NCBI GenBank assembly: GCA_965230955.1
Contig: OZ246404.1
Span: 161,184-225,183 of the forward strand
Source: an uncultured Candidatus Saccharibacteria bacterium
GTDB lineage: Bacteria; Patescibacteriota; CALEFQ01
Direction of reading: 5' to 3'
DNA length: 64,000 nucleotides
The position numbers were made by a program, and so were the translations under genes. Shown here piece after piece: positions 2 to 44,816 of this stretch (its first letter is position 1; each line of letters begins with the position of its first letter). The notes beneath the pieces were generated by a model, which was not told the origin of the DNA, did no database searches, and saw nothing but the letters and a program-made list of their open reading frames with translations.

Positions 2-1966
2 TTTGATCGGATTGCCGGCGCTTTTTGGGACAAAGAGGAAAATGATCAATCCAGTCCCGCGCTTGATTTAAAATTATCGCCGACCAACGTGACGAAGGGC
101 GGAGAACTGAATGTCACCGTCTCGCCCCAAAACTTTCGCACGATGGTTCGGAATTTGTATTTGAACTGGTGCCTGACTAACGGCGAAACCGGCGCCACCA
201 AGAGTTATAATGAAGTGATCGCGGGCGGCAAACCGGCGCAAACGTACGCTCAAGCCGGCTGGGCCGCCGGCGGCTGTTGCTCGCCGCTGACTCGGTCGGT
301 GACTTCTGACACCGACAACGACGGTATGGATGATCAGTGGGAACGGAATAATTTTTTGGGCCGGGAAGTAAACGGCGTGTTGGTGACCGAAAGCAATATC
401 GATACCGTCATCCAGCCCGGTGATGATTTGGATCACGACGGATACTACGCCCGTAAATTTGTAAACAAAGAAGGCCGGCCGGTGACGGCCGCGCCGGCGT
501 TGATTGATCATTTGGGCCGGATTTATTATCCCGGCGCCGGCGATACGCGTTTGACCAATGTCGAAGAATTTATTTTAGGCACTGATCCGATGGATGGCGA
601 TACCGATAACGACGGTTGGGGCGATGAGATGGACTATATGGGAATCGGCGCGACCACTTTTTCTTTCCCGGTGGAATTGGCACCCGGACCGAGCGGTTAT
701 TACCTGATCACATCGATCGCGGCCGGTATAAACAGCAACGGTGAGGTTTCGGTGGCGGCGCGCAGTAAGCGCTTTGATGTTTCCGAGGGTGAAAATTTGG
801 AAGTGTCGCTGTCCAGTCCGCAAACGAGCATGATTATCGATGAGCAGCCGCCGGGAGGATTTATCAAACTGAATGTCAGTATTGCGGGCGGGGAAGTCGA
901 GCCGGAAGATTTATATTTTGAATGGTTTTTCAACGGTCAGCCGGTTTGTGATTCGGATAAATACCGTGATTTTTGCCAGATGGGGCGGGATAGTATTGAA
1001 CTGGGCGGGGACGGGAAAGCGCTGATTGATTTGCCGGGCCTGGACGGGAAAGCGATCAATTTACAGCCCGGCACTCCGTATCTTTTTGCGGTCCGGGTCA
1101 CGGATCCGGCCTCTCGTCGGAGCGCCGACGCTGCTTTATACGTGCCGTTGGCTCAAGCTTTGCATCTCACCACTGCTTGTTCGGCCGGCGCCACCGACTC
1201 TTCCGCTATCCCGACGGATTCCGGCGAAACGACGACTATTTGCGTCGAGGAGTTCCAGGCGGGTAGTACCACGGCGGCCGGTTTCACCAAAGCCAATTGG
1301 CAGTGGTCGTTGGACGATGTCAGCGTCCAGGAACAATCCGGTATCGGCAAAAGCACGTTGACTATTACCGAGTCGGAATTAGCCGGCGGACAGCCCAAAG
1401 TGGTAGCCGAAATATTTGATGTAGCGGCGGGCGGTTTACTGGCTCGGGCGGCGCGGGATTTCGCGACTACCGGTCCGACCGTCGAAATTACTGAGCCGGT
1501 ATCGGAATACTACGGCGGCGGACGAGGGACCGACAATCGACTGGTTCACGGTCAACCCGGCGAGACTCTCCGTTTTGTTGCCACGGCCGTAAATTTCCCG
1601 GTCACCGGCGAAATCAATTTTTCCTGGCAGGCGGGCGGAGCCCAAAGCCAAGGTGTTGGTTTGTCGACTTTTGAATATACGATTCCTCTGGACGCCAAAG
1701 CGGGCCAAGATATTCCGGTGACCATCATGGCGCAAACCCGGTCTGCGACCGGACAAACGCTCATGGCTGAAGATAATATTACCCTCTTGGTCGGCGCGAC
1801 TTCCGGGGTGGCGGGATTGGGCGAAAAATTTCAAGCCGGGCTGGCCAAGGTGGCGAATTTGATCCCGGCCAGCTATCGCCTGGCTTTCACGATAGTAATT
1901 TCCGGCGCATTAATCGCCGGGCTGGCTTGGTTGGTCATGCGTTTATTGAAAATCGGTTCACTATAA
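2..1966 (+). CDS. Giant surface protein paralog A, 5'-truncated by the window edge. It carries TSP3-like Ca-binding DxDxDG repeats and a C-terminal TM anchor.
   Basis: The frame is open back to the window start (GTG at 89 is only the first start the ORF finder could call). Motifs NLYLNWCL, AGGKPAQ, GGCCSP and DTDNDGMDDQWERNNFLGREVNG align to internal regions of the two downstream paralogs. It ends with a hydrophobic helix plus a basic tail. Confidence 0.8.
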   Translation, partial: FDRIAGAFWDKEENDQSSPALDLKLSPTNVTKGGELNVTVSPQNFRTMVRNLYLNWCLTNGETGATKSYNEVIAGGKPAQTYAQAGWAAGGCCSPLTRSVTSDTDNDGMDDQWERNNFLGREVNGVLVTESNIDTVIQPGDDLDHDGYYARKFVNKEGRPVTAAPALIDHLGRIYYPGAGDTRLTNVEEFILGTDPMDGDTDNDGWGDEMDYMGIGATTFSFPVELAPGPSGYYLITSIAAGINSNGEVSVAARSKRFDVSEGENLEVSLSSPQTSMIIDEQPPGGFIKLNVSIAGGEVEPEDLYFEWFFNGQPVCDSDKYRDFCQMGRDSIELGGDGKALIDLPGLDGKAINLQPGTPYLFAVRVTDPASRRSADAALYVPLAQALHLTTACSAGATDSSAIPTDSGETTTICVEEFQAGSTTAAGFTKANWQWSLDDVSVQEQSGIGKSTLTITESELAGGQPKVVAEIFDVAAGGLLARAARDFATTGPTVEITEPVSEYYGGGRGTDNRLVHGQPGETLRFVATAVNFPVTGEINFSWQAGGAQSQGVGLSTFEYTIPLDAKAGQDIPVTIMAQTRSATGQTLMAEDNITLLVGATSGVAGLGEKFQAGLAKVANLIPASYRLAFTIVISGALIAGLAWLVMRLLKIGSL

Positions 1967-1972
1967 GCAATA

Positions 1973-4960
1973 ATGAATTTCCACACGCTTAAATCTGCCA
2001 GATTGATTTACGGGTTGATTGCCGGCGGTTTTTTCTTTTTATTTTTCTGTCTGCCTCAGCTGGCGTCGGCGTATAGTTTTGATCTGAGTTTGTCCGGTGG
2101 AGAATCGGCCGCTAGCGCCGAGCTTTCTTCGGAGATCGGCAATTGGGAAGTTAACGGCGGAGAATTTGTGAGCGACGGATATTTGTTAAGTACGAGCAGT
2201 CTGATTCGGTTGAAATTACCGAATAACTTGCCGGTAGGCCATGTCAAAATCAGATTTGAAGCGAAGGGCATTGATAATGATGTCAAAGCTTTGCCGGCGG
2301 GAGCCCAAGACGGATACATGTTCAGTCTTGGAAATGAGTGGTGCAATCCTTGCCCCCAGGAGGGTTATAATCAGGGCTGTGACGCGGCCAATTTCGGAGT
2401 CAGCCTGAAGAAATGGCCCGCTAATATGGGAGGAGACGCCTATTCAAATAGTATTTTGGCTCAAGGCTGGAGCGGCTTATTTAATGGCACGGCGGTTCCC
2501 GGAGCGGGCGTAGGCGATCAGTTTAATTGGGAAGATTATACCGGTTTCTATACGGTGGAATTGGATTTACATGCCGGCAGTAGCAGCGGAACGTTGAGTG
2601 TCTGGAAAGGAGATCCCAATGCCGGGGCGGCGCCGGTTCTAAATTCACCGAGCGGAGTACCTTATGGTTTATTGAAGTATGATAATCGAGATGATCTCAA
2701 AGTCGGTATCGGCGCGGAAGCGCCGGGCGAACCGTCGTATGGGGGAGTGACGATCCGCAATGTCAGTTTGCTGATGGAAGAAGAAGCTGCTCCGGCCGGT
2801 CATCCCACGTATCCGACGCAATGCGCGAATGAGGATCCGGAAGATAATATTTACGGAGTGTGTTCGTGCGTGGGCGGATCGCTATCCGATCCGGTGCCTT
2901 GCGAGGACACATATGTCGCCGGAGACAAACGCAAAGCGACGGTAATGAATCAATTCCCGTTTGAATTCGATCATTGGAAAATTGCTTGGGATCCAACCTG
3001 GACCATCAAAAGCATGATGAAAGAATTTGAGGCCAAGGATAAAGAAACGCAGATGCCGGCTTCGGTCGAAGTGCAATTTACTCCGCCGTCGCCCAAGGAA
3101 GGCGATCAAGCCGGGGCGGTCGCGACCGCTCTTAATTTCCGGACCCGGCCCAATAATTTGTATTACGCCTGGTGTCTGGTTGATGGCGACAGAGTTTGGC
3201 CGATGAACAGCGTGGTGGCGGGCGGCACCAGGCCGGAAAACGCTTCCGACAAACCATTTGATGAAAAAGGCTGCTGTGGTCCGATTACCCGGACGCCGAC
3301 GGTTGATAAAGATAACGACGGGATGGATGATAATTGGGAAATAGAAAAATTCATTGGACGGGCAGGGACCAATTACACTTCGATCGAAGAAGTCCGTCCG
3401 GGCGATGATCCGGATTCTGACGGATTTAAAGCCAGTAATTTCAAAAATGAAAACGGGCAGACTTTGACGGTGGCACCGGGGATGAGAGACAGTAAGGGTA
3501 ACGGTTATGTTACCGGCCAGACCGGTTCTTTCGCCAATATTGAGGAATACATTGCCGGCACCGATCCGCTTAACGGCGATACGGACGGTGACGGATTCGG
3601 CGATGAAATGGATTACGTGGGAGTGGGGCAATCAAATCTGCCTTTTGATATTGAGAAATCAGCCGGGCCGAACGGATACTATGATGTCGGAGTGTCGGTA
3701 GTGGGAATCGATAGCCGGAAAAAAACGGCTTTGACCAGTTCCAAACAGCGGATATTTATCGGCGACGATGATCAGTTGGAAGTTACATTGGACGCCGACA
3801 AAGAAGTTCTGACCTTTGGCTCCGATCAATCACTGGTGATTCAAGCCGATACGATCGCCGGATCGGAAACAAATCGAATTTTGTATTACGAATGGTCGCT
3901 AAACGGCGACTCAGCTTGCGATAAGTACGGCTACGAAAACGAAGACCTGTGCGATGTCGGCAAAGATGAACTAAAAATCGGCGCGGGCGGAATCAGTCCT
4001 TTGGATTTGCCGGCACCGACCTCGGAAGATTATACGATTGGGGTCAAGGTGCGCGACCAGGCGAGCCGCGATGAAGCCGAAGCGACTCTGGTCTTGCCGG
4101 TGGCTTACGCCGTCACTCTGACCACGGTTTGCAATGGACAAACCCAAGAGATAAATTCATTACCGGTAAACAGCGGGGACACTTTAGGGATTTGCATCGC
4201 CGAAATTGATGAAATCACGGCGGAGATGGAAGCGGCCAAATTGAATTTTGTTTGGAGTTATGATGGCGTCAATGTGGCTGAACAATCCGGCTTAGGGAAA
4301 ACACAATTTACCTTGGTGGCGGATGGTGATGCCGGCGCGACTCATACCGTGGCGGTCAGGATAAAAGATCCCAATCGCGCCCGGGAATTCGCCAATGGTT
4401 CTCGCCAGTTTGGCGTCGGCGGGCCGCGTGTCTCCATTGTGGAGCCGGCTGATCGGATCACTTTCAGTGACCAGGTTGTTCCCGGGGAGACGCGTTTTAT
4501 CGCTGTTCGGCCCGGAGAAAAATTACCCTTGGGCGCGAACCAGGAGAACTTTATTGGCACTCAGGGTTGGGTTGTGAACTGGCAGATCAATGGTGCGGCG
4601 GCTAATTCATACACCCTGTCGACTTTTGAACCAGGGGAAAAGCACTTGTTCACGTTCGATGTGCCGGCGGAGGCTCGGGACGGGCAAGTTTATACGATTA
4701 ATTTTTCCATTACCGCTATCGATAATGATCCGCCGGAATCGGCCAGTGACTCGATCAAGGTTGTCGTCGGTCCGGAGTCCGGCGTCCTGGGGCGGGCTAA
4801 TCCTTTTTTCAGCACGATGGCGGCGGTATTCAATCAAGTGCCGGAAATATTCAGACAGCTGATCACTTATGCCGGTATTTTGGCCGCGGTCTTTTTCGCC
4901 CTGGTTTTTCTTTACCCGAAGGTCAGCCGCTTTTTAGAAAACCGTCAGTCGAAAAAATAA
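1973..4960 (+). CDS. Giant surface protein paralog B (995 aa). It has a signal peptide, a Cys-containing N-terminal region, TSP3/dockerin-like Ca-binding repeats, Ig-like beta repeats, and a C-terminal TM plus basic tail.
   Basis: The N-terminal signal peptide is followed by the conserved core LNFRTRPNNLYYAWCLVDGD...KGCCGPITRTPTVDKDNDGMDDNWE and GTDPLNGDTDGDGFGDEMDY. The C-terminus reads ...PEIFRQLITYAGILAAVFFALVFLYPKVSRFLENRQSKK. Confidence 0.85.
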   Translation: MNFHTLKSARLIYGLIAGGFFFLFFCLPQLASAYSFDLSLSGGESAASAELSSEIGNWEVNGGEFVSDGYLLSTSSLIRLKLPNNLPVGHVKIRFEAKGIDNDVKALPAGAQDGYMFSLGNEWCNPCPQEGYNQGCDAANFGVSLKKWPANMGGDAYSNSILAQGWSGLFNGTAVPGAGVGDQFNWEDYTGFYTVELDLHAGSSSGTLSVWKGDPNAGAAPVLNSPSGVPYGLLKYDNRDDLKVGIGAEAPGEPSYGGVTIRNVSLLMEEEAAPAGHPTYPTQCANEDPEDNIYGVCSCVGGSLSDPVPCEDTYVAGDKRKATVMNQFPFEFDHWKIAWDPTWTIKSMMKEFEAKDKETQMPASVEVQFTPPSPKEGDQAGAVATALNFRTRPNNLYYAWCLVDGDRVWPMNSVVAGGTRPENASDKPFDEKGCCGPITRTPTVDKDNDGMDDNWEIEKFIGRAGTNYTSIEEVRPGDDPDSDGFKASNFKNENGQTLTVAPGMRDSKGNGYVTGQTGSFANIEEYIAGTDPLNGDTDGDGFGDEMDYVGVGQSNLPFDIEKSAGPNGYYDVGVSVVGIDSRKKTALTSSKQRIFIGDDDQLEVTLDADKEVLTFGSDQSLVIQADTIAGSETNRILYYEWSLNGDSACDKYGYENEDLCDVGKDELKIGAGGISPLDLPAPTSEDYTIGVKVRDQASRDEAEATLVLPVAYAVTLTTVCNGQTQEINSLPVNSGDTLGICIAEIDEITAEMEAAKLNFVWSYDGVNVAEQSGLGKTQFTLVADGDAGATHTVAVRIKDPNRAREFANGSRQFGVGGPRVSIVEPADRITFSDQVVPGETRFIAVRPGEKLPLGANQENFIGTQGWVVNWQINGAAANSYTLSTFEPGEKHLFTFDVPAEARDGQVYTINFSITAIDNDPPESASDSIKVVVGPESGVLGRANPFFSTMAAVFNQVPEIFRQLITYAGILAAVFFALVFLYPKVSRFLENRQSKK

Positions 4961-4970
4961 TTTTCTAATC

Positions 4971-7802
4971 GTGAAGTGTCTAATTTTTTTATTTCATCGT
5001 CTGTTTTTTTTCACCGCGGTGGTTGCGGGCGCTTTTGTAATTTGGTTTTGCTGCCCAATGTCGGCCAAAGCCGAGATTTTGACCTACCCATCTTTTAGCA
5101 CGCCTTCGGAAACCTCCGGACAGGAATGGAAAGTGGGGGAGGCGGCCGGCGGCGCGATTGTCATCGGATCATTGGAATTTGATGTGTCCGATTTGAGTCA
5201 AGCCAATCTCCTCAAGCACCAGATTTTCGCTATGTTTGATGCCTCTCAGCCTACTGCCTTTGCCAATCACGGTTACTGGATTCATTTTCGGAAACGCGCC
5301 GAGTTACCTTTCGACGGCCCGGGTTTCCAGTTTAAATTACAGGTGGATTGCTCGTGGGATGATGAGAACGTCAAAATCGATCCGGCGGGCTGGATGCCGG
5401 ATCGCACTTATCATTTTACTTTTTCTTGGGATCGCGATTCGACTAAGGTGGAAGTCTTTGATCCCGTCACCGGCCAGTCGGAAATATCGGAATTGCCTTT
5501 GCCCTCGCCCTTCAAAGCCCAGGATCAAGCGATTGTTTTCGGGGTGGCGGGTTTGGCCAATAGCGCCGCTTTTCCGGCCGAGCCGGGCGCGCATTATAGC
5601 AATATCACTTTGAATGCCCAAGAAGTCATCGCGGAGTTTGACGATTTCAATGGTTATCCGGCCTGTGAATTTGACGGAGGATGCGGGTGCGTCACCGAAG
5701 GCGATCCTTTTTCGGCTCCTTGTTCCGAGGCCAGCAGTACTCGGCCGCCGGAACCGGCCGATGATCCTTTCACCACTTCACTAAAGAGCGGACTGAAATG
5801 GAATTGGAAGATGAAAGATATGGCCGATTATTTATCCTGGCGCGAGAATAACGACCAAGATAATCCCGATGTCGAGATCCAGTCGATGACGCCGGGTTTG
5901 CCGCGCGGCGAAAAAGCGTCTTTTACCGCGGTTGCCCAGAATTACCGAACTCGAACAGATAATATATATTATTCCTGGTGCGTGCGCGACAGTTTGACCG
6001 GCAAAACCGCCAATTACAATAGCGTCATGGCCGGCGGTTTGTTGGCCGAAACATCCGATCTGAAACAGCCGGATGGTCATGGCCAGTGTTGCCAATGGAT
6101 CACTCGCCGGCCAACCGTCGATTTGGATGATACCAACGGCGACGGCCGGCCCGAAGGCGACGGGATGGATGATAATTGGGAGCGTCAGAAATTTGTCGGC
6201 CGGGAGGTGAATGGCCGGACTTATAATACGATTGAAGAAGTATTGCCGGATGATGATCCCGATCAGGACGGCACGGTGATGAATCGTTTCATCAATGCCG
6301 ATGAAGGCGTCCCGGTGACGGTGGTGGCCGGCCTGGTGGATTCGCTGGGAAATAAATATATCGCGGGCGGATCTGCGGGAAAACTTCGAAATGTGGAAGA
6401 ATATATTTTAGGAACCGATCCGCTCAACGGCGACACCGACGGCGACGGTTATGCCGACGAGGCGGATTATCTAGGCGAAGGCCAGAGCGTTCTGGAATTC
6501 GTGCCGGAGCAAGCGGTCGGAACCGGGTTTTACGAGGTCCAGGTTTCGACAGTGGGACTGAGCTCTCGGAAGAAAACTTATGTGGCTCTCGCTACGCGCC
6601 GAGTTTATCCCAGCCTCAAAGAACAGTTCAGTATTTCATTATCTTCCGATCGGAATGTGATCCCGGTGGGCTCAAATGATTCCACCAAAGTTAATTTGAT
6701 CGTCAATGTGCTGGGCGGCGATGCCAGTGGCGCTCAACTGGATTTCAGCTGGACTTTCCAGGGTGAAAGCGTCTGCGATGCGCAAAAATATCCAGAGTTG
6801 AGCAAGTTTTGCGATTTCAATCAGGGCCGGATATCTCTCGGAGGAAACGGCGCGCTGGCTTTTAAAGATTTACCGGGGATGGATCAGGTGCCGGAAGGGG
6901 GAGACTATATCATCGGTGTTCGAGCCGTCGATAGTGCGTCGCGCCAGGATGCCAGCGCCGAACTTCGTTTGAAAAAGGGCTCGGCTCTGACGTTGACGCC
7001 GGCTTGCGACGGAGCGCGCGACGAGACGGTCAGCGTGCCGGCCAACGGCGGATCGACAGTCATTTGCATCAGTGAATACGGAGTGGCCGATTTGGATCCA
7101 GCCGGTGCCGCTTTTAATTGGGCGATCGACGGTGTGATTGATCAGAATCAGAGCGGTCTGGGTCGGGACCATTTTACTTTATGGGCGACCAAGCCGGCCG
7201 GGTCAAGCCAACAGGTTGATTTAAAAATATTGTACGGCTCCAGTTTGGAGCGGGAATTGCTGGGATCAATCAACGTGCCGGTCGTCGGTGCGCTGGTAGA
7301 AATAAATAAGCCGGCGGATCGGATTGAGCCCGGCGATGGCAATGTTCCCCAAGCTACTCGCCTGATACGCGTGGCTCCGGGGGAGACGATTACTCTGGGC
7401 GCGCGCGCGGAGGCTTTTGGAGCAATTGATTCCTATCAGTGGTCGTGGCAGGCGGGCGAAAGCTCAAGTAGTACCGAAGGGGCAAACTCCGAATCTGATT
7501 TTACTTATTCCGTGCCGGTTGGGGCCTCGATAGGGGAAGTGATACCGGTCTCGGTCACGGCGCGCGGGCAAAATCAAACCGGCCGAATCACGGATGCCGG
7601 CGATACCATTTCGTTGCTGGTCGGTAGCGGTAGCGGGCGACTCGGCGCGGGAGGCGGATTGTCGCGGACCTTCGCCGCTTTATCGGCGGTGATACCGGCT
7701 CAGTATCGGGCGAGTTTTCAATTAATCGCACTGGTGGCCGGGGCACTGGGTGTGCTATTGGCCGGATTATATTTTTATAGTCGAATGACTTCCAAGAGAT
7801 GA
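4971..7802 (+). CDS. Giant surface protein paralog C (943 aa; GTG start) with the same core module and C-terminal anchor.
   Basis: Signal peptide. Conserved motifs NYRTRTDNIYYSWCVRD, GQCCQWITRRPTVDLDD, GDGMDDNWERQKFVGREVNG and GTDPLNGDTDGDGYADEADY. C-terminus reads IPAQYRASFQLIALVAGALGVLLAGLYFYSRMTSKR. Confidence 0.85.
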   Translation: MKCLIFLFHRLFFFTAVVAGAFVIWFCCPMSAKAEILTYPSFSTPSETSGQEWKVGEAAGGAIVIGSLEFDVSDLSQANLLKHQIFAMFDASQPTAFANHGYWIHFRKRAELPFDGPGFQFKLQVDCSWDDENVKIDPAGWMPDRTYHFTFSWDRDSTKVEVFDPVTGQSEISELPLPSPFKAQDQAIVFGVAGLANSAAFPAEPGAHYSNITLNAQEVIAEFDDFNGYPACEFDGGCGCVTEGDPFSAPCSEASSTRPPEPADDPFTTSLKSGLKWNWKMKDMADYLSWRENNDQDNPDVEIQSMTPGLPRGEKASFTAVAQNYRTRTDNIYYSWCVRDSLTGKTANYNSVMAGGLLAETSDLKQPDGHGQCCQWITRRPTVDLDDTNGDGRPEGDGMDDNWERQKFVGREVNGRTYNTIEEVLPDDDPDQDGTVMNRFINADEGVPVTVVAGLVDSLGNKYIAGGSAGKLRNVEEYILGTDPLNGDTDGDGYADEADYLGEGQSVLEFVPEQAVGTGFYEVQVSTVGLSSRKKTYVALATRRVYPSLKEQFSISLSSDRNVIPVGSNDSTKVNLIVNVLGGDASGAQLDFSWTFQGESVCDAQKYPELSKFCDFNQGRISLGGNGALAFKDLPGMDQVPEGGDYIIGVRAVDSASRQDASAELRLKKGSALTLTPACDGARDETVSVPANGGSTVICISEYGVADLDPAGAAFNWAIDGVIDQNQSGLGRDHFTLWATKPAGSSQQVDLKILYGSSLERELLGSINVPVVGALVEINKPADRIEPGDGNVPQATRLIRVAPGETITLGARAEAFGAIDSYQWSWQAGESSSSTEGANSESDFTYSVPVGASIGEVIPVSVTARGQNQTGRITDAGDTISLLVGSGSGRLGAGGGLSRTFAALSAVIPAQYRASFQLIALVAGALGVLLAGLYFYSRMTSKR

Positions 7803-8773
7803 AAATTATTAACTTTTTTTCACAATTCAACGGTCGGACGGCAGTATTGCTCGGTCTGATAGTTTTGGGCTGTTTGCTGGCGGGCATGCCTTTCTTGACT
7901 CAGGCCGGGACGGTGAATCTGGAAGTAGGGATCGGTACCAACACCACGACCGAAGGTATATCGTTTTATATCGGCATGATTTATCGTTTTGCCGCGGCGA
8001 TCGTCGGGGTGATCGCGGTGATCATGATCATCATCGGTGGGATCCAGTATTCCGCTTCGGCCGGCAATCCCGCCGCCTTGGGTTCGGCCAAGGAGACGAT
8101 TACCAGTGCGATTATCGGCCTGGTGATTGTGTTGATGTCTTATTTGATTTTAGGTGTTTTCAGTTCGCGTTTCACGAATTTGTCCGAGCCGGTTTTGGAT
8201 CCGGTTGATATTCCCGCGACGGATAAACCGGCGAATGATCCCACCGGAGCCAATTGTCCGGGAACGTCAATGACCGATGCCAGGACAAATCTGGATTTGG
8301 ATGAAACGTGCACCAGTATCTGTCGTTTTGGGAAATACAGTGCTAAGTCGTATAAACCGAACGTAAATACCGTTTGCTGTATTTGCACGGCCGGTGGGAC
8401 TTGCCCCGGTGGATATATATATTCTCAAGATCGAAGCCAGTGTGATATGTTTTGTCGGCAGAATTTGAATATAGGAGTTGAGGATTATAAGGCTAATTGC
8501 TGCAAATGCCGTTCCTGTCCGGCCGGAAGCCGGCGAATATCCGATTTGGGCGGGCAGTCTTGCAGTCAAGCATGCGGCACCTTGGGGGTAGCCCAGGAAA
8601 CAGCCGAGTGTTGTACCTGTAATGCGGAGTCTCAATTACCATGCCAGATTGACGGCGCTTACTATTGTAATGCCGACAAAAAAAGCGTGGATAGTTTTTG
8701 TCAGACCTCGTTTTCGCCGGATCAAAATTGTAGAGTATCCCAAGAAGGCAGCCAATGGTGTTGTCGGCCTTGA
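7799..8773 (+). CDS. VirB2/TrbC-like two-helix pilin-domain membrane protein fused to a Cys-rich C-terminal ectodomain (24 Cys in about 180 aa).
   Basis: It overlaps the upstream stop by ATGA. After the signal peptide come two hydrophobic helices separated by a short polar loop (AIVGVIAVIMIIIGGIQYSASAGNPAALGSAKETITSAIIGLVIVLMSYLIL), typical of conjugative T4SS pilins. The C-terminal region carries CC dipeptides (VCCIC, NCCKC, ECCTC, WCCRP). Confidence 0.7.
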   Translation: MKIINFFSQFNGRTAVLLGLIVLGCLLAGMPFLTQAGTVNLEVGIGTNTTTEGISFYIGMIYRFAAAIVGVIAVIMIIIGGIQYSASAGNPAALGSAKETITSAIIGLVIVLMSYLILGVFSSRFTNLSEPVLDPVDIPATDKPANDPTGANCPGTSMTDARTNLDLDETCTSICRFGKYSAKSYKPNVNTVCCICTAGGTCPGGYIYSQDRSQCDMFCRQNLNIGVEDYKANCCKCRSCPAGSRRISDLGGQSCSQACGTLGVAQETAECCTCNAESQLPCQIDGAYYCNADKKSVDSFCQTSFSPDQNCRVSQEGSQWCCRP

Positions 8774-8816
8774 TCTCGCTGGGCTAATGCCGGTGAATTT
8801 GCTATTATGGTAAATA

Positions 8817-9782
8817 ATGAATACTTTTTCTAAAAAACTGATTTGGCTGGTCATCGTTTTAATGGCGGTGGTTTGGTTTAGTCCTTTTTGGGTTCAGGCC
8901 GAGACGACGAGAATCGTTCCGAAAAATGCGGTCAATTTGGAAGTGGGAATCGGCGGTTTCAATCAAGTGAAGGGCGGAATTGTTGACTACATCGGCCAGA
9001 TTTACATTTTTGCTACGGCAATTGTCGGCGGTTTGGCGGTGGTGATGATTATCATCGGCGCGGTGCAGTATTCCTCTTCAGCCGGCAACAAGGCGGCCAT
9101 GGGCTCCGCCAAAGAAACAATTACCAGCGCGATTATCGGATTGGTGATTGTGCTTATGGCGTATTTGATCCTTGGGACATTTAGCGGAGATTTTGTGAAT
9201 TTGGTGAATCCGAGGCTGGAGGTTCTGGATATTTCCGATCAGGCGCCAGGCAAAGCGGGTTGTTCTTGGCAAACCGGTACCTCTTGCTCTGATCCTGTCA
9301 ATTTCAGGCAAGGTGATGCGGTAGAGTGTGGCGGTACGGCCGAGGCAGGAAAAGTTTGTTGTTGTCAAAGAGTTGATACTCTTCCGGGAACGTGTTTTGA
9401 TTTTTCCGCGGATAAAAATTCCTGTGATCCAGACAACGGGAAAAGAAATTGCTTTAAGCCGATAAGTGGACCATATAATAGTTTGACCGGTTGTACGGTT
9501 AATTGTACCAATAAAAACCCAGCTAATTTCTGTAAGGAGTCACCAGTAGCTGATGGCCAGCAATCTTCAGCGTATTGTTGTTATGAAGATGTTACTCCTC
9601 CTCCTTCTGGTGTCCCAGAGTGTCCGGCCGATACCACGACCGGGCGAATGTATGACTATTACGACCAATGCAAGCGAGCTTGTGGTGTGGCGGGCGATAA
9701 ATGTTGTCGAGCGGCAGATTTGACCACGTGTGTAGCGGCTAGTAGCTCGGACAAGAATTGGTGCTGTATGCTAAATCCGTAA
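8817..9782 (+). CDS. Paralog of the previous protein: a VirB2/TrbC-like pilin-domain membrane protein with a divergent Cys-rich ectodomain (22 Cys).
   Basis: The N-terminal 120 aa are nearly identical in pattern (NLEVGIGG...AIVGGLAVVMIIIGAVQYSSSAGNKAAMGSAKETITSAIIGLVIVLMAYLILG). The C-terminus is Cys-rich and divergent (VCCCQ, YCCYE, KCCRA, WCCML). Confidence 0.7.
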   Translation: MNTFSKKLIWLVIVLMAVVWFSPFWVQAETTRIVPKNAVNLEVGIGGFNQVKGGIVDYIGQIYIFATAIVGGLAVVMIIIGAVQYSSSAGNKAAMGSAKETITSAIIGLVIVLMAYLILGTFSGDFVNLVNPRLEVLDISDQAPGKAGCSWQTGTSCSDPVNFRQGDAVECGGTAEAGKVCCCQRVDTLPGTCFDFSADKNSCDPDNGKRNCFKPISGPYNSLTGCTVNCTNKNPANFCKESPVADGQQSSAYCCYEDVTPPPSGVPECPADTTTGRMYDYYDQCKRACGVAGDKCCRAADLTTCVAASSSDKNWCCMLNP

Positions 9783-12415: not shown

Positions 12416-12979
12416 ATGGCCCGCCTGCCCCGAAAATTTTACGAACGTTCGACTCTAAAAGTTGCTCCGGAGTTACTGGGGCATTTTTTAGTGAGACAAG
12501 GAACAGGTAACAAGGAACAAGTAACAAAAAGGAAAACGATAATTACGGATGTGGAGGCGTATGTGGGAGAGGGGGATCCGGCTTGCCATGCCAGTCGGGG
12601 ACAGACCGAGCGCAACAAAATTATGTATGGCCGGGCCGGCCACGCTTACGTTTATTTTATTTATGGAATGTATCACTGTTTGAATGTGGTTACGGAGAGG
12701 GAAGGTTTTCCGGCGGCAGTGCTAATACGCGGCGTAAGTAACAAGGAACAGGGAACAAGTAACAAAAGGGAAATATTAAATGGCCCGGGGAAGTTGTGTC
12801 GGGAACTGAGGATAACTAAGGGGCTAAATGGTACTGATTTAGTTATGGGGCAAGAACTGTGGATCGAAAAAAATCCCGAGCGAAATAATTTTTTACGATC
12901 TCGCAAAATCAAAAAAACCCCGCGCGTCGGTATTAGCGCGGGGCGAGATAAATTGTGGCGCTGGGTGATCGAATCGTAG
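12416..12979 (+). CDS. mpg: DNA-3-methyladenine glycosylase (Mpg/AAG family)
   Basis: Motifs VEAYVGEGDPACHASRGQTERNKIMYGRAGHAYVYFIYGMYHCLNVV...AAVLIRG...NGPGKLC. Two loop regions are encoded by GTAACAAG-type repeat DNA (see findings). Confidence 0.85.
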   Translation: MARLPRKFYERSTLKVAPELLGHFLVRQGTGNKEQVTKRKTIITDVEAYVGEGDPACHASRGQTERNKIMYGRAGHAYVYFIYGMYHCLNVVTEREGFPAAVLIRGVSNKEQGTSNKREILNGPGKLCRELRITKGLNGTDLVMGQELWIEKNPERNNFLRSRKIKKTPRVGISAGRDKLWRWVIES

Positions 12980-19020: not shown

Positions 19021-19086
19021 AGGAGAATTGTTTTAAAGTATTGTGTACTGCCGCTATTTTTGAAAATTTGCGTAGAGGGTGAGATT

Positions 19087-19126
19087 CGCCCGGTCATTCG
19101 GCCGGGCGCCGGGTCGAATGACCCGG
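19087..19126 (-). repeat. 40-nt GC-rich hairpin element (copy 1). It is inserted at the TTCG^AATC position of a partial tRNA-Ser(TGA) 3'-end copy.
   Basis: CCGGGTCATTCGACCCGGCGCCCGGCCGAATGACCGGGCG on the minus strand. It is preceded by TGGTTCG and followed by AATCTCACCCTCTACGC, a copy of the tRNA 3' end. Confidence 0.7.
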
Positions 19127-19133
19127 CGAACCA

Positions 19134-19223
19134 TGGCGGAGAGGGTGAGATTCGAACTCACGAGGCCCCGAAGGACCTGCCGGTTTTCAAGACCGGTGCC
19201 TTAGACCACTCAGCCACCTCTCC
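19134..19223 (-). tRNA. tRNA-Ser(TGA)
   Basis: Acceptor GGAGAGG/CCTCTCC, anticodon stem CCGGT/ACCGG with loop CTTGAAA, a long variable arm, T-arm GTGAG-TTCGAAT-CTCAC, and a 3' GCCA. Confidence 0.9.
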
Positions 19224-19378
19224 GGGAAAATTCAAAAATAAAAGCTAAAAATCTAAAAGAGTACTAAAATCTAAAAATTAAATACTTTAATATTTAGATT
19301 TTAAATTTTTTTTTAAACTTTTAAGCTTTAATTTTTAAAGCTTCGCCTATGGCGGGTCATGGCGGAGAGTAGAGGATT

Positions 19379-19418
19379 CGCCCGGCCATGCGTCCGGGCG
19401 CCGGGTCGAATGACCCGG
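19379..19418 (-). repeat. 40-nt GC-rich hairpin element (copy 2). It follows a partial duplicate of the tRNA-Ser(GCT) 3' end.
   Basis: CCGGGTCATTCGACCCGGCGCCCGGACGCATGGCCGGGCG on the minus strand. It is flanked by GATTATTTTGGTTCG and AATCCTCTACTCTCCGCCAT. Confidence 0.7.
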
Positions 19419-19433
19419 CGAACCAAAATAATC

Positions 19434-19526
19434 TGGCGGAGAGTAGAGGATTCGAACCTCTGCGGGGCTTTTGAGGTCCCCAACGGTTTAGCAAACCGTC
19501 GCCTTAAGCCACTCGGCCAACTCTCC
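19434..19526 (-). tRNA. tRNA-Ser(GCT)
   Basis: Acceptor GGAGAGT/ACTCTCC, anticodon stem ACGGT/ACCGT with loop TTGCTAA, a long variable arm, T-arm AGAGG-TTCGAAT-CCTCT, and a 3' GCCA. Confidence 0.9.
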
Positions 19527-19533
19527 ATGTCGA

Positions 19534-19800
19534 TTATGCATTTAAATTGAGTTCCTTCAAAATGTCTCGAATTTGCTGTCTAAGTAATCGTCTTCCTTCG
19601 GTGGTTTTTAGGAACATCTCTCGACGAGAAGCATCGCTTTTCTTTAGATAGGATTCCTCGTGAATTAGTTTGACAGGACGATGGTTTTTGGTTGAGGAAA
19701 CTTGTCCGTGCTGGTGCTCGGCAATTCTTCTTCGCAGATCATTGGTACTGCCTTTATAAAGACTATGATTACTTAATAAAAGAACATAGACGTGGAACAT
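19534..19800 (-). CDS. GIY-YIG nuclease family protein (88 aa)
   Basis: AAGGAGGG RBS. N-terminal VYVLLLSNHSLYKGSTNDLRRRIAEHQHG matches the GIY...YIG motif spacing of small standalone GIY-YIG proteins. Confidence 0.75.
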   Translation of the reverse strand: MFHVYVLLLSNHSLYKGSTNDLRRRIAEHQHGQVSSTKNHRPVKLIHEESYLKKSDASRREMFLKTTEGRRLLRQQIRDILKELNLNA

Positions 19801-19828
19801 GACGATCCCTCCTTGTTTTTAGTGGATT

Positions 19829-19868
19829 CGCCCGGTTATTCGACCGGGCGCCGGATCGGATGATCCGG
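19829..19868 (-). repeat. 40-nt GC-rich hairpin element (copy 3). It interrupts the T-loop of a tRNA-Ser(GCT) pseudogene.
   Basis: CCGGATCATCCGATCCGGCGCCCGGTCGAATAACCGGGCG sits directly after GGTTCG of the tRNA fragment and before AATCCAC. Confidence 0.7.
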
Positions 19869-19942
19869 CGAACCTCTGCGGGGCTTTTGATGTCCCCAAT
19901 GGTTTAGCAAACCGTCGCCTTAAGCCACTCGGCCAACTCTCC
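19869..19942 (-). pseudogene. tRNA-Ser(GCT) 5' fragment (about 95% identical to positions 1 to about 67 of the intact gene). It is truncated in the T-loop by the hairpin element.
   Basis: GGAGAGTTGGCCGAGTGGCTTAAGGCGACGGTTTGCTAAACCATTGGGGACATCAAAAGCCCCGCAGAGGTTCG, with no 3' acceptor strand. A further decayed 5' fragment carrying an internal insertion lies at about 20030..20096. Confidence 0.7.
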
Positions 19943-29158: not shown

Positions 29159-29163
29159 TCTAC

Positions 29164-29243
29164 AGTCTTTGGTCTTTGGTCTTTAGTCTTTAGAAGTAGG
29201 GGATTCTAAAGGCTGGTGACTAATAACTAATAACTAATTTATG
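29164..29243. repeat. GTCTTTGG-family period-7 repeat. The partner arm is degenerate and TAATAAC-rich.
   Basis: GTCTTTGGTCTTTGGTCTTTAGTCTTTAG ... CTAAAGG ... TAATAACTAATAACTAA, between pilM and pilN. Confidence 0.6.
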
Positions 29244-32583: not shown

Positions 32584-32587
32584 AAGG

Positions 32588-32654
32588 GTCTTTGGTCTTT
32601 TGTCTTTAGTCTCGGCTAAAGACAAAGGACTAAAGACTAAAGACTAAAGACTAA
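32588..32654. repeat. GTCTTTGG-family period-7 inverted-repeat hairpin between pilB and pilT
   Basis: GTCTTTGGTCTTTTGTCTTTAGTC tcgg CTAAAGACAAAGGACTAAAGACTAAAGAC. Confidence 0.75.
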
Positions 32655-32657
32655 TTT

Positions 32658-33731: not shown

Positions 33732-33752
33732 TCAACGACGATAATAAGTATC

Positions 33753-33830
33753 AGGTAACATGTAACAAGTAACAAATAGGAAATTATCTATTCCATTTTG
33801 TTACCTGTTCCCTGTTACTTGTTACTTGAA
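33753..33830. repeat. GTAACAAG-family period-7 inverted-repeat hairpin between pilT and pilC
   Basis: GTAACATGTAACAAGTAACAAATAGGAAA ... TTTGTTACCTGTTCCCTGTTACTTGTTAC. Confidence 0.75.
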
Positions 33831-33838
33831 TACTCCAT

Positions 33839-35047
33839 ATGCCTATCTACAATTATCGCGCGAAAACTTTTAAGGGCGAAGTCCAGGCGGGGACCGTGGA
33901 TGCCGCCAGTCCGCAATCCGCGGCTGACGTGTTACGCAGCCATAATTTGGTCGTGGTGGAATTAAACGAAGAAGGCACGCAAGCCGGTCTACAGAGCCGT
34001 CTTAAGATTTTTGACCGGGTCCATCCGCGCGATATCGTGATTTTTTCCCGGCAACTCTCGACTATGATTTCCGCTACTTTGCCGCTGGTCCAGGGTTTGC
34101 GCGTCTTGTCTGAACAACAGCAAAATCCTCTTTTCAAAAAAATAATGGAAGATATTACCGCCCGGGTTGACGGCGGAGCGCGCCTGTCGGTGGCGATGAA
34201 CCAGTATCCGGATACTTTTTCCAATTTTTTTGTCAGCGTGGTGCAGACGGGGGAGACCAGCGGTAAATTGGATGAATCGCTGAATTACCTGGCCGATCAG
34301 CTGGAAAAAGACTACGACCTGACGTCGAAAATTCGCTCGGCCATGTATTACCCGGCCTTTATCCTCGGCGGGATCGTGGTGGTGGCGATTATCATGGTGA
34401 CGTATGTCATCCCGCAATTGGAATCAGTGCTGATCGGCATGCAGGCGAATCTGCCCTGGTCGACCAAAGCTCTGCTCGGCGCCAGCAATTTTTTCCGCGA
34501 CTATTGGTGGATCATTTTGATCGTCGGCGTTTTGATTTTCTGGTGGCTTCGATCCTGGAGCCGGACGATGGATGGGAAGCGGAAACTGGATCAAATGAAA
34601 CTGAAATTGCCTATTTTCGGCAAGCTTTTTCGCTGGGTCTATATCACCAGAATGTCGCGCACTCTCTACACCTTGCTCGTCGGCGGAGTGAAAATCATTG
34701 AAGCGCTCGGCGTCACGGCTTCGGTTATCGGCAATTCGGTCTACAGTGATATCATAAAAAAAGCGGCTCAGCGCGTGGAATCCGGCGATTCGATCTCGAC
34801 CGTCTTGCGCCAGGAAAAGGAAGTGCCGCTGATGGTCTCGCAGGTGATCGAAGTGGGGGAGAAAACCGGCAAACTGCCCTTTACCCTGCAAAAAATTTCC
34901 GAATTCTACGGCCGAGAGCTGGATAATGCCGTCAAAGGCTTGTCCTCTTTGCTGGAGCCGATAATTATGGTAGTATTAGGCATCGGTGTCGGGATTCTCA
35001 TGGCCGCTGTTATTATGCCTATCTACAATATTAGTTCGATGATGTAG
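33839..35047 (+). CDS. pilC: Type IV pilus platform protein PilC (GspF family)
   Basis: Two T2SSF repeats and three TM segments. Confidence 0.9.
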   Translation: MPIYNYRAKTFKGEVQAGTVDAASPQSAADVLRSHNLVVVELNEEGTQAGLQSRLKIFDRVHPRDIVIFSRQLSTMISATLPLVQGLRVLSEQQQNPLFKKIMEDITARVDGGARLSVAMNQYPDTFSNFFVSVVQTGETSGKLDESLNYLADQLEKDYDLTSKIRSAMYYPAFILGGIVVVAIIMVTYVIPQLESVLIGMQANLPWSTKALLGASNFFRDYWWIILIVGVLIFWWLRSWSRTMDGKRKLDQMKLKLPIFGKLFRWVYITRMSRTLYTLLVGGVKIIEALGVTASVIGNSVYSDIIKKAAQRVESGDSISTVLRQEKEVPLMVSQVIEVGEKTGKLPFTLQKISEFYGRELDNAVKGLSSLLEPIIMVVLGIGVGILMAAVIMPIYNISSMM

Positions 35048-35490
35048 TAACAAGTAACAGGTAACAGAGAACAAGTAACAAATCGGAAAACTATTAATAT
35101 AAAAGGGAGGGATATGAGGGAGGGGATTAGGTTTAGAAGCAGAAAATTTGCTTTGATGGTCATAAGGCTGGTGGCAGATTTCTTAAAAAACAAAGAAGCA
35201 TATATCATTGGCAGTCAGTTGATCCGATCGGCGACATCTATCGGCGCTAATTTGGCGGAAGCGTATGTGGCACGTTCCCGTTCGGAATTTCGGAGTATAA
35301 ATAATATTGCTCTTCGCGAGAGCGAAGAAACTAAGTACTGGTTGGAACTAGCCCGAGATGCATTTCTCGTCGACGAATCAAAGCTTGCCCCGGTTCTCCG
35401 AGAGGCTAAAGAAATTTGCAAAATCTTGGCTACAATTGTTATAAAATGTAAAAACTAATTCCTATTTGTTACTTGTTACATGTTACTTGC
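35047..35490. mobile_element. Candidate cassette: a four-helix-bundle protein gene bracketed by GTAACAAG-family inverted repeats, inserted between pilC and pilA.
   Basis: Left arm GTAACAAGTAACAGGTAACAGAGAACAAGTAACAAATCGGAAAA (35047..35095). The right arm is the reverse complement, GCAAGTAACATGTAACAAGTAACAAATAGGAATT (35457..35490). The same arm pair with only a 20-nt loop occurs at 33753..33830. Confidence 0.45.
35114..35458 (+). CDS. Four-helix-bundle protein (23S rRNA intervening-sequence protein / Avd-like family)
   Basis: LIRSATSIGANLAEAYVARSRSEFRSINNIALRESEETKYWLELARDA matches the hallmark region of this family. Confidence 0.8.
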   Translation: MREGIRFRSRKFALMVIRLVADFLKNKEAYIIGSQLIRSATSIGANLAEAYVARSRSEFRSINNIALRESEETKYWLELARDAFLVDESKLAPVLREAKEICKILATIVIKCKN

Positions 35491-35534
35491 TTTTAAATGA
35501 TGTTTAAATAAAATTATGGAAAGGGGGTGAGTCT

Positions 35535-36101: not shown

Positions 36102-36887
36102 ATGATCTCGCTTTGGTCAGTTATCGTTTTTTTTCTCGGCCTCTGTGTGGGCAGTTTTTTAAATGCGCTGATTTTTCGGCTACATTCCGGCGAATCGGTG
36201 GCTAAGGGGCGCTCGAAGTGCCCCAAATGCCAACACCAACTCAGTGACTGGGATTTAATTCCGGTCATTAGCTTTATCGCCCTGCGCGGAAAGTGCCGTT
36301 ATTGCCACGCCCCGATTTCTTGGCAGTACCCGACAGTGGAATTGGTGACGGCGATTTTATTTGTCCTGGTCTATCTGTATCTGATACCTTCGACGCAAGT
36401 TGGGACGATGACCGGGATTTTTTATTTGGCCTTTCTTTGGTTTATCGTCAGTGTGTCGATTATCGTTTTTGTCTACGACCTGAAGCATTACTTGATTCTC
36501 GACAAAGTCATTTATCCCGCTCTGGCGGTGACTTTTATCGCCGTTTTATTTTTGCCGCAATTTGATTTTTGGCGCGCGCTGATCGGGAGCGGGGTGGTTG
36601 GCGGGTTTTTCCTAATTTTGGTATTATTATCAAAAGAGACTTGGATGGGTTGGGGGGATGTGAAGCTGGGATTTTTGCTGGGCTTGGTGGTCGGCTGGCC
36701 GCTCTGTCTGCCTCTGTTCTTGATCGCTTTCGTCGGCGGCTCGGCCGTCGCGCTTCTCCTGATGGGTCTGAAACTAAAAGGCTGGAAAGACTCGGTGCCG
36801 TTCGGCACGATGCTCACTGCGGCAGCGGTGATAACACTATTTGTGGGGCAAAAATTGATTGATTGGTACTTTGGACTATTGGTATAA
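36102..36887 (+). CDS. pilD: Prepilin peptidase PilD (A24 family)
   Basis: Tetracysteine CPKC...CRYC, a DUF1232-like N-domain, and A24 peptidase TM helices. Confidence 0.9.
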   Translation: MISLWSVIVFFLGLCVGSFLNALIFRLHSGESVAKGRSKCPKCQHQLSDWDLIPVISFIALRGKCRYCHAPISWQYPTVELVTAILFVLVYLYLIPSTQVGTMTGIFYLAFLWFIVSVSIIVFVYDLKHYLILDKVIYPALAVTFIAVLFLPQFDFWRALIGSGVVGGFFLILVLLSKETWMGWGDVKLGFLLGLVVGWPLCLPLFLIAFVGGSAVALLLMGLKLKGWKDSVPFGTMLTAAAVITLFVGQKLIDWYFGLLV

Positions 36888-36889
36888 GT

Positions 36890-36960
36890 TAAAAGTCAAA
36901 AATCAAAAGTCAAAAGTTTCTTGTTGCTACTTTTGACCTTTGACCTTTGACTTTTGACTT
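36890..36960. repeat. GTCAAAAG-family period-7 inverted-repeat hairpin between pilD and the minor pilins
   Basis: AAGTCAAAAATCAAAAGTCAAAAG tttcttgttgctac TTTTGACCTTTGACCTTTGACTTTTGACTT. Confidence 0.75.
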
Positions 36961-37542
36961 ATGTCAAAAGTTTCCCATCAACGCGGTTTTACCCTGATCG
37001 AGATGCTCGTCACCATCTCTATTTTGGTTTTGTTGAGCGCGATGGTGGTGGTCAATTTCCGCGATGCCGAAAAGGGGAACGCGGTGCGGCTCGGGGCGGA
37101 GCAGTTTGTCGGTGTGTTACGCGAGGCGCAGAATTACGCTTTGGCGCAAAAGCGGGTAGTGGTCGGAAAAGACAGTATTGTACCGGCCGGCTACGGCGTT
37201 TATATCAAACTGGTGAAAGGCCAGACTACGGAAGCCGTTTTTTTCGCCGACACCGGGCCGAAGCTCGGTTTGTATGAGCCGAAAGAAGACCTCGAGATCC
37301 GCACGGAAGAGCTCCCGCGGTACGCGGTTTTCTCTTCGTTACTTGGCGGGGCCACGGATGAATTAAGCCTTATTTTTTCTCCTCCGGACGGCGCTGTAAA
37401 TTTCGGAAATCTCCCGGCGGAATTATCGGCCACGGAGGTAGCGGTGGTGATTCAGCTTTATCTGGGCGGCGAGGTCGGCGGTACCGCCAAGAGCGTCATT
37501 GTAAATTCACTGACTTCATTGATTGAAATAAAAGATTTCTAA
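36961..37542 (+). CDS. Minor pilin / pseudopilin (GspH/FimT-like)
   Basis: Prepilin motif QRGFTLIEMLVTISILVLL. Confidence 0.8.
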   Translation: MSKVSHQRGFTLIEMLVTISILVLLSAMVVVNFRDAEKGNAVRLGAEQFVGVLREAQNYALAQKRVVVGKDSIVPAGYGVYIKLVKGQTTEAVFFADTGPKLGLYEPKEDLEIRTEELPRYAVFSSLLGGATDELSLIFSPPDGAVNFGNLPAELSATEVAVVIQLYLGGEVGGTAKSVIVNSLTSLIEIKDF

Positions 37543-38110: not shown

Positions 38111-38111
38111 A

Positions 38112-38172: not shown

Positions 38173-38174
38173 AG

Positions 38175-40513: not shown

Positions 40514-40529
40514 GGGGGGAATTGCTATA

Positions 40530-40635
40530 ATAAGTAACAGGTAACAAGGAACAAGGAACAAATAGGAAAAGATTCATTCCAATTTGTTACCTGTTACCTG
40601 TTACTTGTTACCTGTCATCGTTACCGGGTACTTGC
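40530..40635. repeat. GTAACAAG-family period-7 inverted-repeat hairpin
   Basis: GTAACAGGTAACAAGGAACAAGGAACAAATAGGAAAAG ... TTTGTTACCTGTTACCTGTTACTTGTTACCTG. Confidence 0.75.
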
Positions 40636-44814: not shown

Positions 44815-44816
44815 TA

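Follow-up and report, generated by a model that had tools for sequence, protein, structure and literature searches.

How does DNA that belongs to a family of non-coding hairpin repeats come to be read as protein within a conserved DNA-repair gene, and does it serve any purpose there? The question is raised by mpg, the gene for an alkylpurine DNA glycosylase, in a 64,000-nt stretch of contig OZ246404.1 from an uncultured Candidatus Saccharibacteria bacterium; we refer to this whole stretch as the window. A first-pass annotation, made from the letters alone, reported two copies of a hairpin-repeat arm in frame within mpg, and proposed either that the repeat element is tolerated in coding DNA or that the two copies form a phase-variable mutator switch. 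Our analysis suggests that the mpg arms are probably entrenched, fast-turning-over passenger repeat DNA lodged in two permissive loops of the enzyme, with no regulatory switch involved.

Two hairpin arms within the mpg coding sequence

The gene and its two arms are located in the window as follows.

12416..12979, + strand: mpg, alkylpurine (3-methyladenine) DNA glycosylase of the AAG family; a 187-aa open reading frame (ORF) with a PF02245 match
12496..12537, + strand: site 1, a complete A-rich arm of the GTAACAA/GGAACAA hairpin family; four 7-nt units and a AAAAAGGAAAAC tail, in frame as QGTGNKEQVTKRK, residues 28-40
12734..12775, + strand: site 2, a second complete A-rich arm of the GTAACAA/GGAACAA family in the same orientation as site 1; in frame as VSNKEQGTSNKREI, residues 107-120

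Both arms consist of four 7-nt units of the form G[G/T]AACA[A/G], followed by AAAA(A/G)GGAA. The segments first described are present in the ORF as quoted, the peptides QGTGNKEQVTKRK and SNKEQGTSNKREI had been translated correctly, and the arms are indeed direct copies, although the distance between their starts is 238 nt and not the 240 nt originally given. An exact 16-mer, GGAACAAGTAACAAAA, is common to both arms at an offset of 238 (1 mod 3), and is thus read in different frames at the two sites; an exact 13-mer, GTAACAAGGAACA, is shared at an offset of 231, in frame.

The relationship of the arms to intergenic repeats is supported by several lines of evidence. A scan for 7-nt periodicity, in which an arm was defined by a score of >=17/21, identified 23 arms in the window and 0 in shuffled sequence. 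Twenty-one of the 23 lie in the non-coding 9% of the window, nearly all of them paired as hairpins that take up the short gaps between genes of the same direction, and the only two inside a coding sequence are both in mpg. The full form of the GTAACAA family is an intergenic hairpin of ~90 nt with four 7-nt units per arm, and nine arms, from mpg and from intergenic DNA, can be aligned from the arm base (A/TAAG) through to the apex (GGAA). Allowing <=2 mismatches, the 16-mer has seven matches in the window against 0.07 expected from shuffling, and every one of these is part of mpg or of the hairpin family. At 34/37 positions, site 2 is complementary to the T-rich arm at 33791-33827, and its identity to that arm is 92%, compared with 79% to site 1, which makes an origin of site 2 by intragenic duplication of site 1 unlikely.

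We also constructed a codon-aware null, in which both peptides were held fixed, codons were resampled from window usage (n=2000) and the best 30-nt match to any intergenic arm was recorded. The observed match was 28/30 at both sites, whereas the null maximum was 26 at site 1 and 27 at site 2, and none of the 2000 resamplings reached 28. The match is therefore better than that expected of K/Q/E/N-rich codons, and the condition which the first-pass annotation had named as fatal to its claim, a match no better than this, does not hold; the shuffle count and the codon-aware null together rule out chance or composition as the source of the resemblance.

Whilst membership of the intergenic hairpin family is upheld, what resides in mpg is not a hairpin. 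Each of the mpg arms folds at ~0 kcal/mol, and no complementary partner was found in the same transcript or in cis within 8-17 kb, so the arms are half-palindromes; the whole palindromic element is absent from the window mpg, with one arm at each site.

The enzyme that contains these arms appears to be intact. The mpg ATG lies immediately 3' of the radA stop codon, and the product is a full-length match to Pur_DNA_glyco (PF02245; E=1.8e-57; 194 bits, where the curated cut-off is 27), with residues 7-186 covering profile positions 1-178 of 181. Its nearest named matches are from Patescibacteria and Parcubacteria, and among PDB entries human AAG was matched at E=3e-22. The AlphaFold2 (AF2) model of Mpg has a pLDDT of 90.1, and in Foldseek comparisons it matched human AAG-DNA complexes at TM 0.81-0.84 and E ~1e-15, with TM 0.84 to 3uby/1f4r. 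Residues E47, Y49, H58, Y80, Y83, N90 and R105 do not vary across 22 aligned homologues, and correspond to the catalytic and base-pocket residues of the human enzyme, which we take to be E125, Y127, H136, Y159, Y162, N169 and R182 in human AAG numbering. With its catalytic residues invariant and the AAG fold retained in the model, the window Mpg looks functional as an AAG-family glycosylase and is predicted to be active, as had been supposed at the outset.

The arms fall where the protein is most permissive. Sites 1 and 2 are the two most gapped regions in the alignment of 22 homologues, so that their earlier assignment to variable loops is borne out by the length variation of the family and by the structural model alike. 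Site 1 forms the distal part, or tip, of a two-stranded beta-hairpin (E24-31/E34-50) that precedes the catalytic Glu47, and site 2 is a loop between Arg105 and the GPGK motif, predicted to be disordered, with pLDDT <50 at residues 112-117. Compared with human AAG, site 1 is just 4 residues longer and site 2 is shorter, which indicates that the arms mostly replace loop sequence and add no domain.

The composition of the arms bears the mark of the reading frame. A perfect (GTAACAA)n array would give an in-frame TAA every third unit; the unit in that phase is GGAACAA in both mpg arms, and of the three positions at which site 2 departs from the arm at 33791-33827, one is a T-to-G change that removes an in-frame TAA. 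Read in sense, an A-rich arm encodes hydrophilic K/N/Q/E/S/T/G peptides. The T-rich arms translate to hydrophobic peptides (LLLVTCY), and T arms of the GTCAAAA type contain TGA. Such hydrophobic or stop-containing translations of the T arm, together with the -30 to -40 kcal/mol stem that a full hairpin would form, can account for the fact that only sense A-rich half-arms are seen.

Repeat turnover in mpg orthologues and in the pilus operon

The DNA at both sites was read for seven mpg orthologues, including that of the window. Every one of the seven carries in-frame 7-nt arrays in which the A-rich strand is always sense and the heptamer varies; 13/13 arrays are in the A-rich, K-rich sense orientation. 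The six other orthologues, with their identity to the window Mpg, are listed below.

L002, 74% identity: site 1 GGAACAA, orthologous to that of the window and identical at 37/42 positions; site 2 GCCAAAA/GTCAAAA, interrupted by the small GC hairpin TCGGCgagctcaGCCGA
L001, 70% identity: site 1 GTCAAAA; site 2 GTCAAAA
L005, 60% identity: site 1 GGCAAAA; site 2 GGCAAAA and further palindromes
L007, 62% identity: site 1 TGTAAAA; site 2 TGCAAAA/GGCAA and palindromes
L008, 67% identity: site 1 GGTAAAA and the GC palindrome CCTGCCtgccggtaGGCAGG; site 2 ATTCAAA and GC hairpins
L009, 49% identity: site 1 ATGCAAA; site 2 canonical

In a tree of the Mpg core, for which sites 1 and 2 were masked, the six carriers of arrays at both sites form one clade, and L009 falls in another clade, the other members of which have short canonical loops. 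This placement implies ancestral occupancy of both sites and at least one independent gain, that of site 1 in L009. With the topology (window,(L002,L001)), the sequences point to a switch of family at site 1 in L001, and to a switch at site 2 that took place either on the branch leading to the window or in the L002-L001 ancestor. Arrays are absent from the Mpg sister clade (P0007-P0011, P0013-P0018) and from all 80 of the distant mpg loci that were scanned as a negative control (0/80). Scans of genome contigs and metagenome contigs for closer orthologues returned only Mpg at <=54% identity. The idea of lineage-specific, tolerated insertions therefore survives in part: the arrays are tolerated in the coding DNA of seven orthologues and are absent outside the lineage, but they take the place of loop sequence and are not insertions into an empty site.

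The arrays of different orthologues have counterparts in non-coding DNA. The sequence GTCAAAAATCAAAAGTCAAA, irregular unit included, is common to site 2 of L001 and to the intergenic hairpins of the window at 36881 and 44808, from which it follows that the heptamer families are older than these species. Arrays of the ATGCAAA/ATTCAGA family occupy site 2 of L008 and site 1 of L009, a one-base variant occupies site 1 of L007, and a hairpin of the same type adjoins mpg in L007 and L008. Small complete GC palindromes are present in frame within the mpg of L002, L005, L007 and L008. Between the window and L002, identity at site 1 is 88% (37/42 nt), compared with 78% for the core overall and 55% at core third positions.

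Two further observations concern GC palindromes and hairpins in these relatives. The palindrome CTGCCTGCCGGNAGGCAGG, a second dispersed repeat, is in frame in the site-1 array of L008 mpg (1480-1498) and recurs in the intergenic DNA of two further Patescibacteria contigs, L174 (11534-11646) and L114 (6730-6748). Downstream of mpg in L008, an insertion sequence (IS) element (2449-3807; DDE_Tnp_1, with its own terminal inverted repeats) lies in the loop of an ATTCAAA/ATGCAGA-type hairpin.

The L001 locus has undergone a rearrangement. Its radA and the first 86 nt of mpg are duplicated upstream, and the mpg homology stops exactly where the site-1 array starts, which indicates that arrays can be breakpoints. 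The remnant of the mpg 5' end (codons 1-28) stands right after radA, and 5'/3' remnants of radA precede the intact mpg (6176-6262 and 8597-8733).

Some apparent variation at site 1 originates in gene calling. Two proteins of 153 aa (P0122 and P0124, compared with 203 aa) were considered as site-1 disruption variants and ruled out, as their DNA is identical to that of the full-length allele across the array; the short calls are thus gene-caller artefacts. In L090 (3001-3462), L091 (1738-2199) and L092 (1164-1625), mpg was called from a GTG (Val51) downstream of the site-1 array, although the DNA of these three contigs does not differ from the full-length allele. The repeat-derived low-complexity stretch, combined with the GGAGGTGGAGG motif, probably misleads the calling of the mpg start.

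The intergenic members of the repeat are themselves diverse. The heptamer families GTAACAA, GTCAAAA, GACTAAA/GTCTTTG and ATAACAA coexist in the window, where full hairpins fold at -27 to -41 kcal/mol (z -4 to -11). A search of the window against Rfam returned tRNAs only, and the hairpins are covered by no known RNA family. The GTAACAA and GTCAAAA copies are the following (MFE, minimum free energy, in kcal/mol).

33741..33832, unstranded: complete GTAACAA-family hairpin between pilB-like and pilC; MFE -32 kcal/mol, z -6.7; the closest relative of site 2
40527..40618, unstranded: complete GTAACAA-family hairpin upstream of ligA; MFE -35.5, z -7.0; 88% identical over 88 nt to 33741-33828
35045..35491, + strand: GTAACAA-family hairpin in two parts, with its A arm at 35045-35099, its T arm at 35459-35491 and the ORF at 35114-35458 between them
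36875..36971, unstranded: sister-family hairpin of GTCAAAA units; MFE -41, z -10.9; the family that occupies both mpg sites in L001
20159-20296, 20978-21015 and 44806-44890: further GTCAAAA-family copies

Intercistronic hairpins recur along the type IV pilus operon, at 29150-29242, 32580-32660, 33741-33832, 36875-36971, 38108-38180, 40527-40618 and 44806-44890, and in its spacers they often overlap stop and start codons. In three of 11 hairpins (29150, 32580 and 38108, all of the GTCTTTG/GACTAAA type), G-U pairs give the sense strand a much greater stability; the others are symmetric. The ORF enclosed by the split hairpin (35114-35458) encodes a 23S_rRNA_IVP protein, an Avd-like four-helix-bundle protein (PF05635, E=4.7e-23). 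The loop of a long heptamer-arm hairpin that separates pilC from the first pilin gene of the operon thus contains a whole gene, and the arrangement is kept in two relatives (L173, 11210-11684; L174, 6058-6711).

Comparison of syntenic operons shows how the hairpins evolve. In L173, from the same contig as the L002 orthologue, the type IV pilus operon has hairpins in the same spacers and of the same families as in the window, including the GTAACAA hairpins of the pilB/pilC spacer and upstream of ligA, which match in both spot and family. The one exception is the peptidase/pilin spacer, where the window has GTCAAAA and L173 a short GTAACAA type. In L174, whose PilC is 71% identical, the same spacers hold hairpins of another family, TAGAAAT/GGAAATT. 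It follows that the positions of the hairpins persist, whereas the sequence is homogenised in each genome and is exchanged from one genome to the next. In keeping with this, the tail GGGAAATATTA of site 2 in the window matches the apex GGGAAATATTATTCC of the orthologous pilB/pilC hairpin in L173, as would a copy that starts at the base of the arm and runs to roughly the centre of the loop.

A protein search with (GTRNKEQ)4(VKSQKSK)4, meant to reveal such arrays in other proteins, found only domain-less ORFs of <100 aa, which are spurious calls over intergenic arrays, and was too insensitive to recover even the Mpg loops. Intergenic heptamer arrays are also abundant in a Parcubacteria metagenome-assembled genome (MAG; L026, 5906-19128) and a Verrucomicrobiia MAG (L050, 6132-19637), both of which entered the analysis through their distant mpg loci, with many different heptamers in perfect direct arrays of 4-5 units or in hairpins; as these genomes are unrelated, the 7-nt array phenomenon extends more widely than this clade.

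Explanations of the mpg arms

The probable explanation, and the one that we favour, is that the arms are tolerated passengers. Single complete hairpin arms now encode the two surface elements at which Mpg is most permissive, and heptamer arrays had already been established at both sites in the common ancestor of the six-member Patescibacteria clade. Since then the arrays have been exchanged repeatedly for other heptamer families, we infer by gene conversion or template switching from other genomic arms, whilst replication slippage may have altered the number of units; small GC palindromes have been inserted into the arrays as well. The core of the enzyme stays under purifying selection, with the arms presumably close to neutral or possibly mildly useful as basic, flexible loops.

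Several observations weigh against this explanation. Of the ~61 genes in the window, mpg is the sole one with intragenic arms, and it has two, whereas generic tolerance should have affected other proteins too; nor was any other coding copy of an arm seen in ~120 kb of close relatives. The window and L001 lineages independently have one family at both sites, a convergence that could hint at selection or at intragenic conversion, and the conservation of site 1 above that of the core between the window and L002 leaves room for a role at the nucleotide level.

Adaptive domestication, in which the lysine-rich, flexible arm peptides improve Mpg (for example in non-specific DNA binding or lesion search) and are kept by protein-level selection, is a possible but unlikely alternative. 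Mpg does bind DNA, arrays at both sites have persisted across a clade in which the Mpg cores have diverged to ~70% identity, and L009 gained its site-1 array independently. The uniform A-rich, K-rich sense orientation of all 13 arrays could be read in the same way, but is equally well explained by counter-selection of the hydrophobic or stop-containing translations of the T arm. Protein-level selection is also hard to reconcile with array peptides that are not conserved among orthologues (GNKEQVT, VKSQRSK, AKGKRQK, CKIKNVK), with the predicted disorder of site 2, with nested palindromes that encode unrelated peptides (SLPAGRQ, GRRAQPS) and are equally tolerated, and with sister clades that do without arrays.

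It is rather doubtful that the mpg loops serve as fixed cassette positions, into which heptamer-hairpin arms are actively copied as half-palindromes, from the base to the centre of the loop, for example after cleavage at the apex or by template switching. The hairpin system would in that case rewrite coding sequence with its own turnover and supply breakpoints, as in L001, and a functional tie might exist between Mpg and the hairpin/IVP-protein system.

A function at the RNA level, whereby the arms in mpg mRNA bind a factor of the hairpin family (an RNA-binding protein) or T arms in trans and so tie mpg expression to that system, seems improbable to us. Pairing with the T arm at 33791-33832 is predicted to give a duplex of great stability (-44 to -49 kcal/mol), but the T arms at other places are tied up within hairpins of their own and a complementary partner in cis is lacking within the 8-17 kb considered above. 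The greater stability of the hairpins at 29150, 32580 and 38108 on the sense strand suggests an RNA role for at least that family, but most hairpins have no such asymmetry. Similarly, the nucleotide identity of site 1 between the window and L002 exceeds core third-position identity, but the excess is not significant (11/14 third positions), and the families at sites 1 and 2 differ in 3/6 of the orthologues that have arrays at both.

The mutator switch proposed by the first-pass annotation, in which the direct repeats or the 7-nt arrays would drive high-frequency deletion or frameshift of mpg and so switch base-excision repair off in a subpopulation, is very improbable and is not supported. Its attraction lies in the two exact direct repeats, one of 16 nt with a spacing of 238 nt and one of 13 nt with a spacing of 231 nt, as either deletion would destroy the catalytic core or the frame: recombination at the 13-mer yields an in-frame product that lacks residues 31-107, and with them all of the catalytic residues, and recombination at the 16-mer yields a frameshift. 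The predicted junction after deletion between the repeats is …GACAAGGAACAGGTAACAAGGAACAGGGAACAAGTAACAAAAGGG…. As 7 nt do not make up whole codons, the gain or loss of a single unit in an array would likewise frameshift mpg, and the segmental duplication in L001, which ends precisely at the start of the site-1 array, gives a hint that arrays are recombinogenic. A deletion of 231 or 238 nt, however, cannot revert, and would therefore amount to gene loss and not to phase variation. A direct repeat of >=13 nt between the sites is present in just 3/7 orthologues (16 nt in the window, 14 in L001, 13 in L005), with <=8 nt in L002, L007, L008 and L009. With 4 units each, the arrays are short; they are also imperfect, as neighbouring units in the window always differ from each other, and are thus poor substrates for slippage. 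No length or frameshift variants occurred in ~30 related-strain contigs, including ~24 carrying P0002, or among members of the 90% clusters, although assemblies hide minority variants and the window strain is represented by one contig.

Least credible of all is coincidence, to which we give practically no weight: the loop peptides are of low complexity and A-rich codons dominate in them, but a mere resemblance of K/Q/E/N-rich codons to an A-rich repeat is contradicted by the codon-aware null (0/2000 at each site), by the seven matches against 0.07 from shuffling, by the reading of the shared 16-mer in two different frames and by homology that extends to the non-periodic arm base and apex.

Under the passenger reading, mpg provides a natural example of non-coding repeat DNA becoming, and staying, protein-coding in an essential-type enzyme, in the setting of Patescibacteria, whose very small genomes would not be expected to contain such 'junk'. 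The refilling of two loops in sister lineages offers a rare time series on the turnover, within a gene, of repeats that are selfish or generated by slippage. Our analysis also flags a 7-nt-periodic hairpin family with conserved intercistronic positions and a sequence homogenised per genome. For annotation, the lesson is that low-complexity K-rich loops in these organisms can be repeat-derived and that gene starts may be miscalled at them, as in the 153-aa calls. We found no evidence here for a new regulatory or mutator mechanism.

The wider window and comparison with known repeat systems

Two other regions of the window contain repeats of a different kind. At 19070-19942, two tRNA-Ser genes are located on the minus strand (19134-19223, tga; 19434-19526, gct), and the first 74 nt of the gct gene are copied at 19869-19942 with 97% identity. 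A 64-nt repeat ending in ...GGGTCGAATGACCCGGCGAACCA adjoins each of the two tRNA-Ser genes and the 19869-19942 copy; the region could be an integration scar or a set of tRNA-like fragments. The region at 89-9782 has a tandem series of three paralogous ORFs of very large size (625, 995 and 943 aa), which contain internal repeats of 47-95 nt, and after them paralogous ORFs of 320 aa; the counterparts of these ORFs in L002 are annotated as T4SS_pilin (PF18895).

In the literature that we searched, we found no published description of these hairpins in Patescibacteria, an absence that is not proof of novelty. Among known systems, the Rickettsia palindromic elements (RPEs) are among the closest: they are selfish palindromic repeats that have been inserted into protein-coding genes in the reading frame (Ogata et al. 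2000, 2002, via PMC10969869). As with RPEs, a dispersed palindromic family is found both in intergenic DNA and in frame within conserved functional genes, the inserted peptide lies at a position compatible with the fold, and the insertion is lineage-specific with respect to distant orthologues (PMC10969869). RPEs, however, are ~150 bp, are inserted whole and add 45-50 residues (PMC10969869), whereas mpg has one 40-nt arm per site that largely replaces loop sequence; the mpg arms are also built of 7-nt units, and the same two sites have been refilled by other families in sister lineages.

Heptameric repeats form a second point of reference. TAACTGA repeats are known from Beggiatoaceae, Cyanobacteria and Bacteroidetes (PMC4679880), STRR heptamers from cyanobacteria, and GGGAATC repeats from Xanthomonas (PMC4692102). 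The window shares with these systems tandem 7-nt units that are enriched in intergenic DNA, often near start or stop codons and sometimes as inverted pairs. TAACTGA repeats also occur occasionally in ORFs, in an orientation constrained by stop codons (PMC4679880), and heptameric repeats are over-represented and vary in length and sequence between close relatives (PMC4692102), likewise the case here. However, the known repeats mostly involve one heptamer per genome in direct arrays, and their ORF cases are at protein termini or in hypothetical ORFs, whereas in the window several families coexist as long hairpins with a shared non-periodic base and apex, and the copies in coding DNA form loops in the interior of the sequence of a conserved enzyme.

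Like REP/REPIN sequences and small stem-loop repeats (PMC3116915, PMC3333891), the heptamer hairpins are short intergenic palindromes dispersed in many copies, which are homogenised in any one genome but vary from genome to genome, and they are targets of IS insertion, in this case in L008. REPs, in contrast, are GC-rich, 20-40 nt long, essentially extragenic and tied to RAYT (Y1) transposases (PMC3116915, PMC3333891); the arms in the window are AT-rich, 7-periodic and ~40 nt long, and two of them are intragenic. Lastly, the element at 35045-35491 resembles the intervening sequences (IVS) of 23S rRNA, in that a stem of flanking inverted repeats encloses a PF05635 gene, but it lies among the protein genes of the type IV pilus operon and not in rRNA, and its link to the mpg arms is that of arm sequence only. 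What sets the mpg case apart from the known systems is the presence of half-palindromes only, their construction from 7-nt units, the occupation of two sites in one small enzyme and the refilling of those sites by different families.

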